Sequence record: PZ445442.1
DNA from: a phage
DNA length: 64,000 bases
Strand: one strand, 5' to 3'
Numbering within the stretch: position 1 is the stretch's first letter; the number at the start of each line of letters is the position of its first letter. Below are positions 288 through 4,233 of this stretch, one piece after another. Below the pieces are notes generated by a model that was not told the DNA's origin, ran no database searches, and was given only the letters and a program-made list of their open reading frames with translations. The position numbers and the translations under genes were made by a program.

Positions 288-653
288 ATGGAACAAATGA
301 ACGATCAAGCGTCGGTTGCGATGAACGAGCAAGAACAACCTCAAGAATTTTTCTTAGGGTTAAGTAAAGATCAAGTGTCTCTTCTGCTAGTGCTTTCTTC
401 TTTCATGGGAAGACTTCAGGAGCTTACACAACAGCCAGAGGCTGAACAATTATTCCAGGCTCTGCGTGAAGAAGAAAAATATCGTCGTTTGGACTATGCC
501 TTAGGTTGGGTAGCTCAACAACGAGATATGCTGATGGCCCTCTCTGGGACCACAAGTTTTGCAATGGGCCTGTTGGCTCAAGTTCAGGACAAATTAATTC
601 AAGCAGGGTTTGCACACACGGCAAACACTAACGAAGAACAAGGAGATAAATAA
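288..653 (+). CDS. hypothetical protein
   Basis: 121-aa ORF, GGAG-type RBS upstream, stop overlaps next start (TAATG). Confidence 0.5.
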   Translation: MEQMNDQASVAMNEQEQPQEFFLGLSKDQVSLLLVLSSFMGRLQELTQQPEAEQLFQALREEEKYRRLDYALGWVAQQRDMLMALSGTTSFAMGLLAQVQDKLIQAGFAHTANTNEEQGDK

Positions 654-1924
654 TGAGCGTTATTCAACAATTCGCTAACCCGATGAATCCGCGTGAAACT
701 GTTTTACTAGCTCACGGCATGATTAAACGTGTCAGCATCAAGCCTATCAAAGGTGCTGATCCTACAACAGGTATTAAAACCACTGTGTGGCAAGGTAAGA
801 AAATTGAATCCAGCCACACCATCTCTTTACTGATTTCTGAACTGGATTCCTCTGATAACCTACTTCAAGGTGGTGAAGAAGTTTGGATCAGTATGGGCGA
901 TAAGCTGCTTAAACCAGGTCATCAAGACTCTGTCTCTGTTAAAATTGATGACAAGTGGGAAACCGTAACGCCAGGATGGATCGTAAATATCCCTTTGAAG
1001 GCAAACGAGCATAACGGTAAGACCTACTACAAAGGCTCACTGGCTAAGATGGTTAAGCTGGGTGCAGGAGAGGCTCCAGCAGCGACTCAGCAGCAAAAAC
1101 AGCAACAAGGTGCACAATCACAAGGCCAGAAGCAGAAACCTCAGCAGAATGCCAATCAGGGCGTTTTACGCATCTATGGTGATGTGACTCAGATTGTTGG
1201 CAACGTGGTTACTGTTAATGACCACAAGATTGGCGAAGGTGCTATGGTTGTAACTGATGAGCAGCTTAAAGACCTAGTGGTAGGTGGTCGTGTTGCAGCC
1301 ATTGTTGACAAAGACACCGGAAACATTATCAGTGGTTTCAAGGCCTATCCTCCTAAGGCAGAGAACGGTACTCAAGGCTCCGGTGGCAAGCGTAAATCCT
1401 CTTACGACCCTATTGGTGTGGAGACGGGGCATAGCATCAATGCGTTGCAGATCATCCTGGATCGCGGGTTTAAGGTGGACGACCCACTAGGTGTGGCTAA
1501 AACACTGCACGTAGTCACCATTGAGCTTAAGAAAGAGTATGCTCAAGCCACCAACCGAACTGAAGATGAAGTAGGTGCCAGTGTCGGTAATGCGGTGTTG
1601 AACGCTTGTCGCCGTATTGACAAGAAAACGAAAGTTGATGATTTTGCAGCGGCAATTACTGCAGAAGCAAAAGATGTCTTGACTAATCTGGCTGAGCCGT
1701 TGTACGATTGGATCAAGAACGGTGCTGAGTCCACTGACCATCAAGAACCTCAAGCTGCCAAACAGGAAGCCGCTCCACAGCAAAACACTGTAGACGCACC
1801 TCCTGTAAATGATGAGGAAGATGACCCGATGGGTCAGAATCCGGCGCAGTATGACTTCTGTGATGACATACCTTTCGCTCCGGTAGGTTTGCAATATGGC
1901 AAAAGTAGAATCCACGCATTGTAA
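653..1924 (+). CDS. hypothetical protein, possibly SSB-like (Q-rich linker, acidic tail with DDIPF motif)
   Basis: 423-aa ORF; Gln-rich low-complexity linkers and acidic C-terminal region containing DDIPF, reminiscent of bacterial SSB tail; OB fold not verifiable by eye. Confidence 0.35.
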
Positions 1925-2519
1925 GAGGTGCATCAAGTGCGGAGAGGTGAAAGACATCTCCGAGTTCTACAAACACCCAAAGATGTCTGACGGTCATCTT
2001 AATAAGTGCAAAGAGTGTTGCAAGAAGGCCAGCAGGGAGGCTGACCAATTTTCCCACGACTCTTCAGAAAAAGGTGTAATACGCGTGCTGTACAAGGCTC
2101 AAAAGTGCAACAGCAAGCAAAGAGGTCACCCGCCTCCGACTTACACCAAAAAAGAGTTTAAGGAGTGGCTATACCTAAACGGTTACAAAGAGTTGTATGA
2201 TCAGTGGGTAGCCAGCGGATACGACAAAAGGAAAAAGCCTTCTTGTGACAGGATAGATGATTTCAAAGGGTACTCTTTTGATAATATCCGTTTAACGACT
2301 TGGGGAGAAAATAAAGACAAGCAGACAGAGGATATTCTGTTGCATAGAAGCACCAGCGGTAGACGGTGTAAAAATGTAAGGAGGCTGGACATGAATGGCA
2401 ACGTTCTTAAAGAATGGGTATCCCACAATTCTTGTAGAAGAGAAACCGGAATATGTGTTGATTACTACATTCATGAAAAAATTCCAGCCCCAGATGGATA
2501 CCTCTACGAATACTTTTAG
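1896..2519 (+). CDS. Zn-ribbon protein with degenerate HNH_3-like motif (putative homing-endonuclease-like)
   Basis: N-terminal CxxC...CxxC pairs; C-terminal [23 protein letters not shown] resembles HNH_3 motif (HHIDGNxxNNxxxNLxLxTxxEN) with the His pair replaced. Confidence 0.4.
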
Positions 2520-3359: not shown

Positions 3360-3785
3360 ATGATCTATGAAATGCCAAAACTGATTCGCGACGATGCCCA
3401 AAACGCTCACACCATTATTATGGGCAAACGCATGGATATTATTTGTCATAGAGATTTCTGGGAAGGAAGTTACTTCACAGAGTATTTTGGTAAACTGGAC
3501 AATGGTCTGCTGATCCAGTTCTACACCGATGCGGAAAACAACATTCCCTGGGAGTTCGAAACTGAAGATGTCCATAAACTTTTCACCTTCCTCGGTATTA
3601 AGGTTAAGGCCAAGTTTGAAGAAGGTGAGTGCGACGATTGTGGATTTTATGAGGTAACAGATTTCTACCTTCCTAGCGGTAAGAACCTTTACTATGAAAG
3701 CCACTTCGGTAACTCCAATATGCCACAGTGCTGGACTGAGTTTTTTGAAATTGCGGAAGAGGAGCTGGCTTACCGTGATTATTGA
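3360..3785 (+). CDS. hypothetical protein
   Basis: 141-aa ORF, coding-strand consistent. Confidence 0.5.
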   Translation: MIYEMPKLIRDDAQNAHTIIMGKRMDIICHRDFWEGSYFTEYFGKLDNGLLIQFYTDAENNIPWEFETEDVHKLFTFLGIKVKAKFEEGECDDCGFYEVTDFYLPSGKNLYYESHFGNSNMPQCWTEFFEIAEEELAYRDY

Positions 3786-4233
3786 TACTGTAGAGGGAGA
3801 TTTAATCTCCCTTTTTAAGGGCGGTGCTGGTCACCTGATCCACGGTTGTAACTGCTTCCACACAATGGGCAAGGGTATAGCAAAACAGATTGCCCGTGAG
3901 TTTCCTCAAGCACTGTCAGCCGACAAAGAGACTAGATACGGTTGCCTAAGTAAACTGGGTGCGTTCTCCCGATGGGAGCACTTATCTCCGATAGGTATTG
4001 TCTACGGAATCAATCTATATACCCAGTTCTACCCAGGACCTAATGCTGAGTATTTCTCAATCCTGAAAGGCTTTGAGCTAGTCAATGAAGTATTCAGCGG
4101 ATCGACTTTACCATTCTACATCCCTAAGATCGGGTGCGGCATAGGCGGTTTGAAGTGGGAACACGTAGAGGACGTTATTAACCTTGCCACTTTCGACATA
4201 GATATTGTCGTGGTGGAGTACAAAAAGTGTTGA
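3775..4233 (+). CDS. hypothetical protein, possible macro-domain-like fold (low confidence)
   Basis: Probable GTG start at 3775 overlapping upstream stop; motifs GGAGHLIHGCNCFHTMGKGIA and IPKIGCGIGG loosely resemble macro/ADP-ribose-binding signatures. Confidence 0.3.
   Translation: MIIDTVEGDLISLFKGGAGHLIHGCNCFHTMGKGIAKQIAREFPQALSADKETRYGCLSKLGAFSRWEHLSPIGIVYGINLYTQFYPGPNAEYFSILKGFELVNEVFSGSTLPFYIPKIGCGIGGLKWEHVEDVINLATFDIDIVVVEYKKC

Follow-up and report, generated by a model that had tools for sequence, protein, structure and literature searches.

The 64,000 nucleotides (nt) of phage DNA analysed here (sequence record PZ445442.1; hereafter 'the window') carry, close to their start, a gene for a protein resembling single-stranded DNA-binding proteins (SSBs) and, overlapping its end, a gene for a putative homing endonuclease. 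Over its first 4300 nt the window matches Escherichia phage EmilHeitz (Bas49, MZ501062.1, Vequintavirus) at 100% identity, with window position 1 corresponding to record position 76759. The SSB-like gene occupies 653–1924 (423 aa; bas49_0089) and the endonuclease gene 1896–2519 (207 aa; bas49_0090), both genes, their parts and the terminator described below lying on the plus strand; GenBank names the two products 'hypothetical protein' and 'putative homing endonuclease', respectively. The second open reading frame (ORF) starts 29 nt before the end of the stop codon of the first, giving a 29-nt overlap. A first-pass annotation, made from the letters alone, had described a DDIPF motif typical of SSB C-termini that is followed by 15 extra residues and overlaps a zinc-ribbon, HNH-like gene devoid of its catalytic histidine. 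That description proved accurate, and the present analysis concerns what it means.

The SSB-like protein is an orthologue of Bas52_0087 and a member of the rV5 gp209 family, phrog_4477, whose profile matches it with an E-value of 6e-173 over residues 1–408. The last position of the profile falls exactly on the Phe of DDIPF, residue 408, which implies that many relatives have nothing beyond it; indeed, orthologues terminate at IPF in 83 of 116 related records. The full-length match is accompanied by conserved synteny, with the same genes flanking the SSB-like gene in rV5, FV3, RudolfGeigy and PVP-SE1. A Pfam scan of the 423-aa protein yielded no match at E ≤ 1, the SSB profile PF00436 included. 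In the AlphaFold2 model, built with 51 homologues, beta domains with a predicted local distance difference test score (pLDDT) above 80 span residues 1–140 (an OB-fold-like N-terminal domain encoded by 653–1072) and 171–235, followed by a four-helix domain (253–355) and a disordered tail (360–423). The OB fold of bacterial-type SSBs, which the first-pass annotation had proposed to look for by structure prediction, is thus predicted. Near the end of the tail lies the acidic sequence DFCDDIPF (1853–1876), a non-canonical version of the E. coli SSB tip FDDDIPF, in which DDIPF corresponds to residues 404–408 (1862–1876). Relatives without the homing endonuclease gene (HEG) end in [S/T/A]FDDDIPF and a stop codon; here the tip is internal rather than at the extreme C-terminus, being followed by a 15-codon extension (1877–1921), a member of the tail module AP[VI]GL-x9-10 described below, before the stop codon at 1922–1924. 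We identify ORF 653–1924 as the vequintavirus SSB-like protein, in which predicted OB-fold domains and a helical domain are followed by an acidic, disordered tail mimicking the host SSB tip. Cys403 (1859–1861) takes the place of an acidic-tip Asp in every c-type allele seen (defined below) and in the empty-site phage A112b. A Cys here is unusual among SSB tips and may be a change in the target site that the protein tolerates.

Alignment with other vequintaviruses showed that a 640-nt segment (1877–2516), comprising the extension and the endonuclease gene, is absent from HEG-less members of the genus. In their empty alleles the Phe codon is joined directly to the stop codon, and the insert sits exactly between these two codons. 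The Phe codon and the terminator motif are 664 nt apart in the window and 24 nt apart in RudolfGeigy, FV3, A51.2, ECP26 and A112b. This intrinsic terminator (2535–2563; a 9-bp stem with seven GC pairs and a T run) ends the transcription unit that holds the insert and is conserved in all aligned genomes and allelic states. Neither a terminator nor a convincing promoter was found between the SSB-like gene and the endonuclease gene, so the latter probably rides on the transcript of the former.

Three allelic states could be distinguished. In the empty state (RudolfGeigy, FV3, A51.2 and ECP26), the junction reads ...GACATCCCTTTT joined to TAACA... and the protein ends [S/T/A]FDDDIPF; the site in Bas52 and FV3 has the sequence ...GATGATGACATCCCTTTTTAACAATTAGTTAACATAGCC.... 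The b-type (WalterGehring, bov10K2 and A13b) has CCTTTC, an insert (TGAGGTCAGTT ATG ... GAATACTTC) and TAACATC, such that the SSB-like protein has EFDDSIPF as its end and the stop codon of the empty allele now terminates a 192-aa endonuclease. The c-type, which includes EmilHeitz along with rV5, SYGMH1, D1 and JEP1, has CCTTTC, an insert (GCTCCG ... GAATACTTT) and TAG, the 640 nt encoding the extension and the 207-aa endonuclease. Junction-specific counts across 116 vequintavirus records gave 32 c-type, 18 b-type and 65 empty alleles, and members of the same species can differ in state, as do FV3 (empty) and SYGMH1 (c-type), or A112b (empty) and D1 (c-type). This is the presence/absence polymorphism at one precise site among close relatives by which homing genes are recognized. 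Two further vequintavirus contigs were recovered from IMG/VR by searching with the terminator sequence. Decay is also seen: phage V18 (L144, 948–1556) carries a b-type endonuclease copy that has lost 42 nt including the start codon, and a metagenomic relative at 82% identity (L016, 3755–3882) has kept the long tail with the endonuclease gene reduced to its first ~25 and last ~30 nt. We considered L016 as an example of an ancestral long-tail, HEG-free state, and rejected it on account of these remnants. A second metagenomic relative (L014, 75% identity) has the long tail together with an overlapping endonuclease.

The extended tail was found far beyond loci that carry an endonuclease. Among 72 homologues of the 423-aa protein, two tail forms, one ending in ...IPF and the other bearing the same extension motif, are scattered across the whole family, and the long form reaches homologues of only 26–42% identity. 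It reads DFDDDIPFAPIGLQYANHTIYVL in PVP-SE1-like phages, where a terminator and a convergent tail gene follow and there is no endonuclease; Kashira-like homologues have the same motif and phapecoctavirus-like homologues have DFDDDIPFAPIGLQYGRNFLHCF. Relatives at 26–82% identity keep the extension as protein through many synonymous changes, and such changes also leave the peptide intact within the rV5-like lineage. A scan with an SSB-like alignment returned eight loci, three of which led to ordinary OB-fold SSBs with the long tail on contigs of temperate-phage size, one of them ending DWDDDIPFAPIGLPYPRHAIYVI. A codon-pattern scan of IMG/VR for DDIPFAP[VI]GL yielded at least 120 contigs. In all 120 matches listed the motif is in frame at the end of an ORF, with the stop codon 13–16 residues past the Phe; the scaffolds in this set are 94 canonical OB SSBs, one rV5-like protein and 25 others (at least four scaffolds, including gp2.5-like proteins), and none of these 120 loci contains a relative of the endonuclease. 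The same scan over one genome per bacterial species gave 28 matches, nearly all in Gammaproteobacteria (Proteus, Providencia, Pantoea, Vibrio, Pseudoalteromonas and others), and the canonical SSBs of the named phages HK75 (L253, 701–1207) and epsilon34 (L254, 701–1207) also carry the long tail. Among the matches listed from viral and bacterial contigs (147 tails, 94 distinct sequences), the extension is 14 or 15 residues long in 93 of the 94; outside the search pattern, P8, H10, I12 and a hydrophobic last residue are conserved, and an identical peptide is encoded by up to seven DNA sequences.

Given its fixed length, its conserved positions, its synonymous variants and its occurrence on unrelated scaffolds with no endonuclease, sequence comparison identifies the long tail as an old, selected and portable module. 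The module can be written as D-[FW]-x-D-D-I-P-F followed by AP[VI]GL and 9–10 residues with a hydrophobic end; it is under purifying selection and is borne by at least five different ssDNA-binding scaffolds in phages and prophages of Gammaproteobacteria. Long-tail SSBs (for example L011, 2629–3135; L012, 2710–3153; L013, 2019–2558; also L017–L136 and L225–L252) are found in temperate phages, prophages and one Vibrio plasmid across the Gammaproteobacteria, and the non-canonical scaffolds include a ~250-aa 'MNQPMTFMWNNETAEMAKKAG' family as well as the gp2.5-like proteins. A literature search returned nothing on the long tail, and the string DIPFAP was found in none of the papers searched.

These comparisons divide the first-pass proposal that a homing-endonuclease-like insertion altered the 3' end of the upstream gene. 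A homing endonuclease, inserted as a mobile element at the last codon, is well supported, but it does not account for the origin of the extension. Related phages without the insert, to which the annotation had pointed as the relevant comparison, tell both halves of this: the 640-nt block is missing from empty alleles ending at IPF, but distant endonuclease-free homologues share the long tail. Likewise, of the two findings that the annotation held would together speak against its reading, homologues sharing the same C-terminus, in the form of the long tail, were found, while the lack of an OB fold was not, the fold being predicted.

The endonuclease gene encodes a free-standing, PacI-like His-Me finger protein. 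It matches phrog_1035 (named 'endonuclease VII') with an E-value of 7e-41. Across 60 relatives at 32–90% identity, the invariant residues are C12, C15, C38, C41, R76, W104, P115, S116, D118, R119, Y126, N139 and R182. The first four form an N-terminal zinc ribbon (1929–2018). A beta-beta-alpha-metal nuclease core (residues 114–149; 2235–2342) holds D118 (2247–2249), Y126 (2271–2273) and N139 (2310–2312), and a C-terminal NUMOD-like helix-turn-helix DNA-binding domain (residues ~155–207; 2358–2516) is assigned from matches in relatives, the window protein itself falling below threshold: in the C-terminal parts of the 60 relatives, 12 match PF22083 (I-HmuI NUMOD-like) and nine match NUMOD1. The conserved body of the protein begins at the stop codon of the extension, with the gene overlap covered only by a non-conserved leader of eight residues.

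Single-sequence searches of the PDB gave only weak matches, the best for the endonuclease being PacI, with the catalytic stretch aligned to VDRSDSFEGYSPQNARLACFICN; a family profile matched PacI across the same stretch with an E-value of 0.01. The AlphaFold2 model (pLDDT 92.9) has strands at 115–119 and 131–135 and a helix at 136–149, forming the beta-beta-alpha unit, and Foldseek with this model returned PacI first (probability 0.98) and I-HmuI second (0.91). The fold of a His-Me finger is therefore present, but the catalytic His at the end of the first strand is not: R119 of the sequence CDRID stands at the HNH position, and no His occurs there in any of the 60 relatives, among which C117 is variable (C/V/I). 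PacI itself lacks the catalytic His, its role being taken by a Tyr of the omega loop, and holds its metal with an Asp and an Asn (PMC5714182, PMC4081073, PMC3384342). D118, Y126 and N139 align with these three PacI residues, placing the protein in the PacI-like subgroup with conserved metal ligands and omega-loop Tyr. From the alignment of relatives, CDRID in place of His is best read as a trait of the family rather than a sign of decay. We conclude that the architecture is a zinc ribbon, a PacI-type nuclease and a NUMOD-like DNA binder, and that the enzyme is probably active by analogy with PacI: Tyr126 would act for the missing His, with D118 and N139 holding the metal. Phage homing endonucleases would thus be represented in the class of His-Me finger nucleases that, like PacI, have Tyr for His.

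In 70 IMG/VR loci with endonuclease relatives, the upstream genes were examined for an SSB tip. All 11 relatives at 47% identity or more for which upstream DNA was available lie 12–80 nt downstream of, or overlap, a gene ending in an SSB tip. The upstream genes encode SSBs that are rV5-like, canonical or short; their tails include DWDDQEIPF, DDDETIPF and DDSDIPFAYIGLSEGKQYIHVI. No genuine case was found in 52 other loci (one at 45% identity, the rest lower), which have other neighbours and where a single regular-expression hit was false; over the loci as a whole the tip expression matches 12 of 329 ORFs of at least 100 aa, namely the 11 upstream genes and the one false positive. Two metagenomic relatives from outside IMG/VR follow SSB genes ending GWDDSEIPF and DEDFSDIPF, and a metagenomic relative, L148, is the same contig as IMG/VR locus L157. 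These observations show an endonuclease lineage specialized on the 3' ends of SSB genes, which, judging by the mosaic boundaries below, moves tail-coding DNA between them. At L148 (1913–2425) and L161 (upstream ORF end near 1921), the SSB genes adjoining related endonucleases end EDEIPFNEVQ and DTDEIPFS, respectively, directly before the stop codon; the residues added after IPF are few and not conserved there, and may be true scars of an insertion.

Sequence boundaries at these loci bear the marks of co-conversion and show that tail codons of SSB genes travel with the endonuclease. In L162–L165 the ssb bodies are divergent (26–80% nucleotide identity, one with a different scaffold), whereas a block that is 94–100% identical runs from ~70 nt before the ssb stop codon, over the tail ...APQNEPPMDWDDQEIPF, the spacer and the endonuclease gene, to the endonuclease stop codon. 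When HEG-bearing and empty vequintavirus alleles are compared, the 30-nt flanks of the insertion are identical at 20–23 of 30 positions upstream and 23–26 of 30 downstream, while most windows further out score 27–30 of 30; bov10K2, at 28 of 30, is the downstream exception. Tips are non-canonical in HEG-bearing alleles and remain FDDDIPF in empty ones, the recombinant A112b excepted. The L162–L165 block and the ~30-nt vequintavirus flanks are the mosaic boundaries that co-conversion leaves around a homing gene, and the flank pattern and tip changes together are the usual signatures of homing with co-conversion and with target-site changes that protect the carrier. The recognition site would then extend over the stop region and the tip codons. 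Downstream of the insert, changes from GTTAAC to ACTAAC were considered as an immunity mark of HEG alleles and rejected, as bov10K2 and IMGVR_0279 carry the endonuclease with an empty-type downstream flank. The empty site of RudolfGeigy (L003, 2725–2750) has a near-palindrome, TTAAC-N5-GTTAAC, right after the stop codon. It may be part of the target, although its arms are not consistently altered in endonuclease-bearing genomes. PacI cleaves at TTAATTAA.

Taken together, the tail extension and the PacI-type homing endonuclease are most probably two separate things lying side by side, linked by recombination and not by origin; we put the probability of this explanation as a whole at roughly 75%. 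Under it, the endonuclease gene, lying after the last sense codon of the SSB-like gene but ahead of the terminator, would be co-transcribed with that gene. Its product would cut HEG-less alleles around the junction of Phe codon and stop codon. In mixed infections, repair from the HEG-bearing genome would copy in the endonuclease together with some 30–70 nt of tail-coding DNA next to it. Since in Vequintavirus this transferred block includes the 15-codon extension, long tail and c-type endonuclease would be inherited together. The two are independent in origin but form one heritable block in Vequintavirus, because all 32 long-tail records carry the c-type junction.

Several points weigh against this explanation. 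The flank polymorphisms are not strictly linked to the state of the endonuclease: in bov10K2 the downstream flank is of the empty type, and A112b pairs an empty site with the DFC allele. These markers are therefore an uncertain guide to the recognition site. A Pfam scan of the 207-aa protein gave no match at E ≤ 1, HNH and Endonuclease_7 included. The Tyr mechanism is transferred from PacI at 24% identity, and PacI is a dimer with two zinc sites while only one Cys4 ribbon is conserved in the endonuclease family. The tail of the SSB-like protein has pLDDT values below 50 and is predicted to be disordered, leaving the function of the extension to inference. The history can also be told in two ways: the block may have been imported into a short-tail genus by homing, or the long tail may be ancestral and have been lost with the endonuclease.

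The second of these histories is the alternative that fares best, and we give it somewhat less than even odds. It holds that the long tail is ancestral in vequintaviruses, that the endonuclease inserted at the long-tail stop codon, that the short empty allele arose by deletion between the short repeats ATACCTTT and ATACTTT, and that the b-type reflects re-invasion of the short allele. Distant relatives (Seunavirus and others) are long-tailed with no endonuclease, the endonuclease body starts exactly at the long-tail stop codon, L016 has the long tail with mere remnants of the endonuclease, A112b combines an empty site with the c-type upstream allele DFCDDIPF, and the SSB-like gene and the endonuclease both end in Phe and a stop codon, which provides microhomology. 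On the other hand, no HEG-free, long-tail vequintavirus was found in the 116 records, short-tail forms also occur in distant clades, and the downstream flank of A112b is a-type and not c-type, which fits recombination better than a simple deletion.

The SSB C-terminal tip is a hub that recruits at least 17 host genome-maintenance proteins, and its terminal Phe is held to be essential in its free form. One would therefore not expect an extension past this residue that is conserved and of fixed length. Typical SSB-tip pockets anchor the alpha-carboxylate of the terminal Phe by way of a basic lip (PMC10164576; see also PMC3152348). In the long form the Phe is internal and this carboxylate is gone, so the long tail should weaken or change binding to host SSB partners. 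The long form would bind canonical host partners poorly or differently, and the extension would add a second, hydrophobic docking element for another partner. By-eye comparison with the beta-clamp-binding motif (QL[SD]LF) and C-terminal degrons gave no convincing match. A broader and more tentative proposal, towards which we lean less than half-way, is that DDIPF-AP[VI]GL-x9-10 is a distinct, selected docking module of mobile-element SSBs that, with the Phe carboxylate buried and a hydrophobic element at the C-terminus, switches them from the host SSB interactome to a specific partner, or hides them from host factors and defences that read the tip (the ExoI/DRT10 axis), with the PacI-type HEG lineage that homes to SSB gene ends acting as the vehicle that swaps tails between unrelated phage SSB genes. 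The vequintaviruses of the BASEL collection form a natural allelic series, with a canonical tip in Bas52, DDSIPF in Bas51 and FCDDIPF plus 15 residues in Bas49, and are thus material for testing the roles of tip and extension, including the recently proposed role of this SSB-like protein as a trigger of DRT10.

Alternatively, the extension could be neutral baggage on a disordered tail, kept only through linkage to a selfish endonuclease. Both the predicted disorder and the existence, within one genus, of viable phages with either tail form would suit such a view. We consider it unlikely, as fixed length, conserved P8, H10, I12 and hydrophobic end, and many synonymous variants on unrelated, endonuclease-free SSB scaffolds point to selection on the peptide.

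It is similarly improbable that the endonuclease-like gene is degenerate or domesticated and catalytically dead through loss of the HNH His, as the first-pass annotation had suggested. The absence of His at the canonical position (CDRID), the lack of a Pfam HNH match at E ≤ 1 and the decayed copies in V18 and L016 could be taken in its favour. The missing His is, however, family-wide and shared with active PacI, with whose catalytic stretch the protein aligns with Tyr in place of His, and the pattern D-R-x-D...G-Y...N...N is invariant in 60 relatives down to 32% identity, D118, Y126 and N139 included. Furthermore, the gene is present in some genomes and missing from others, is inserted precisely, is directed to SSB genes and lies in co-converted blocks, all of which imply that it moved recently, and such movement needs cleavage. 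A domesticated gene would not be absent from 56% of genomes; being polymorphic and sometimes decayed is how selfish elements behave, and the suggestion is probably wrong.

Least probable, and already contradicted, is the view that the extension is an accidental scar, the insertion having displaced the original stop codon so that translation runs into inserted DNA: in Vequintavirus the extension belongs to the 640-nt block that empty alleles lack, all 32 records that have it also have the overlapping type of endonuclease, none of the 65 empty and 18 b-type records has it, and the endings EDEIPFNEVQ and DEIPFS beside related endonucleases may be true scars of this kind, but AP[VI]GLQY plus eight residues is present in endonuclease-free homologues at 26–42% identity, PVP-SE1, HK75 and epsilon34 have the same tail with no endonuclease, the motif sits on unrelated SSB scaffolds in at least 120 viral contigs with an endonuclease relative in none of the 120 listed, codons differ synonymously between lineages while the peptide is kept, and the conserved endonuclease body starts only at the stop codon of the extension, the overlap being confined to the non-conserved leader.

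Some neighbouring features were also noted. Four genes past the endonuclease, the window has an ORF (3694–4233) whose counterparts in relatives bear the annotation macro-domain protein or 'tk.4 phosphatase'. Close to this locus but before the start of the window, the DNA polymerase gene of EmilHeitz (L001, 1–3474; record 70613–74232) is annotated as a join of two pieces, and within the gap lies another 'putative homing endonuclease', bas49_0078 (L001, 2419–2925), a second mobile endonuclease that is probably intronic. In Hafnia phage Pocitis76, an HNH endonuclease is annotated (L255, 684–1208) upstream of a long-tail ssb, with erf on its other side; this may be one more endonuclease tied to the recombination/SSB module. 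Approximately 16–20 'Campylobacter phage' records (MG0656xx, UNVERIFIED, host C. jejuni) are 95–99% identical to E. coli vequintaviruses, and their host assignment looks doubtful.

Both genes are of known kinds, annotated or published as such; what is new is the conserved long form of the SSB tip and a PacI-type HEG lineage that targets SSB gene ends and moves tail codons. The closest published counterpart of the SSB-like protein is Bas52_0087 of RudolfGeigy, which a 2026 preprint describes as SSB-like by prediction, with two predicted OB folds and an FDDDIPF tip, and as the phage trigger of the DRT10/UG17 reverse-transcriptase defence, possibly via ExoI (bioRxiv 10.64898/2026.04.29.721553). 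The window protein is its orthologue, 98.5% identical over residues 1–408 and encoded at the same place in the genome, and it too has a pair of predicted OB folds and a disordered tail with a mimic of the SSB tip. Both escape positions, D252 and Y351, are present in the window protein, and D252 is nearly invariant in the family. The two differ in that Bas52_0087 has the canonical FDDDIPF end and no adjoining endonuclease, whereas the window protein has DFCDDIPF plus 15 residues; the passages of the preprint that were searched mention neither the long tail nor the endonuclease polymorphism. In the E. coli SSB C-terminus (DDDIPF) as in the window protein, a disordered linker extends from an OB-fold ssDNA-binding protein and leads to an acidic stretch and IPF, but the E. 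coli protein ends in a terminal Phe with an anchored alpha-carboxylate (PMC10164576), whereas the window tip has Cys for one Asp and 15 residues after the Phe.

For the endonuclease, the best match in both sequence and structure is PacI (PDB 3LDY/3M7K; His-Me finger group 20, Jablonska et al. 2017; PMC5714182), with which it shares an N-terminal CxxC...CxxC, the motif DR-D...GY...N...CN/EN and the omega-loop Tyr that stands in for the catalytic His. PacI, a type II restriction enzyme of 142 aa, acts as a homodimer on an 8-bp palindrome and has two zinc sites, whereas the window endonuclease has an extra helical region, a NUMOD-like domain, a single CxxC...CxxC site that is invariant among relatives, and the genetics of a homing endonuclease. 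The name 'endonuclease VII', used in many GenBank records and for phrog_1035, is probably a mis-annotation, because architecture and genetics are those of a homing endonuclease; T4 endonuclease VII shares the beta-beta-alpha-metal fold class and zinc-binding Cys residues, but the window protein has no Pfam Endonuclease_7 match and no His-containing motif, and none of the 60 relatives matches Endonuclease_7 (PF02945) at E ≤ 0.01. With I-HmuI and other phage HNH-NUMOD homing endonucleases it has in common the modular pairing of nuclease and NUMOD, and with I-HmuI and the free-standing endonucleases of T4 a position between genes, polymorphism among relatives and co-conversion of flanking markers; SegG, a free-standing T4 endonuclease adjoining gene 32, is a precedent for the targeting of an SSB gene. 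It departs from the HNH homing endonucleases in that the catalytic His is replaced, the family falls outside Pfam HNH_3 and the insertion lies exactly at the last codon of the SSB gene, and its lineage follows SSB genes of unrelated scaffolds that share only their C-terminal tip.

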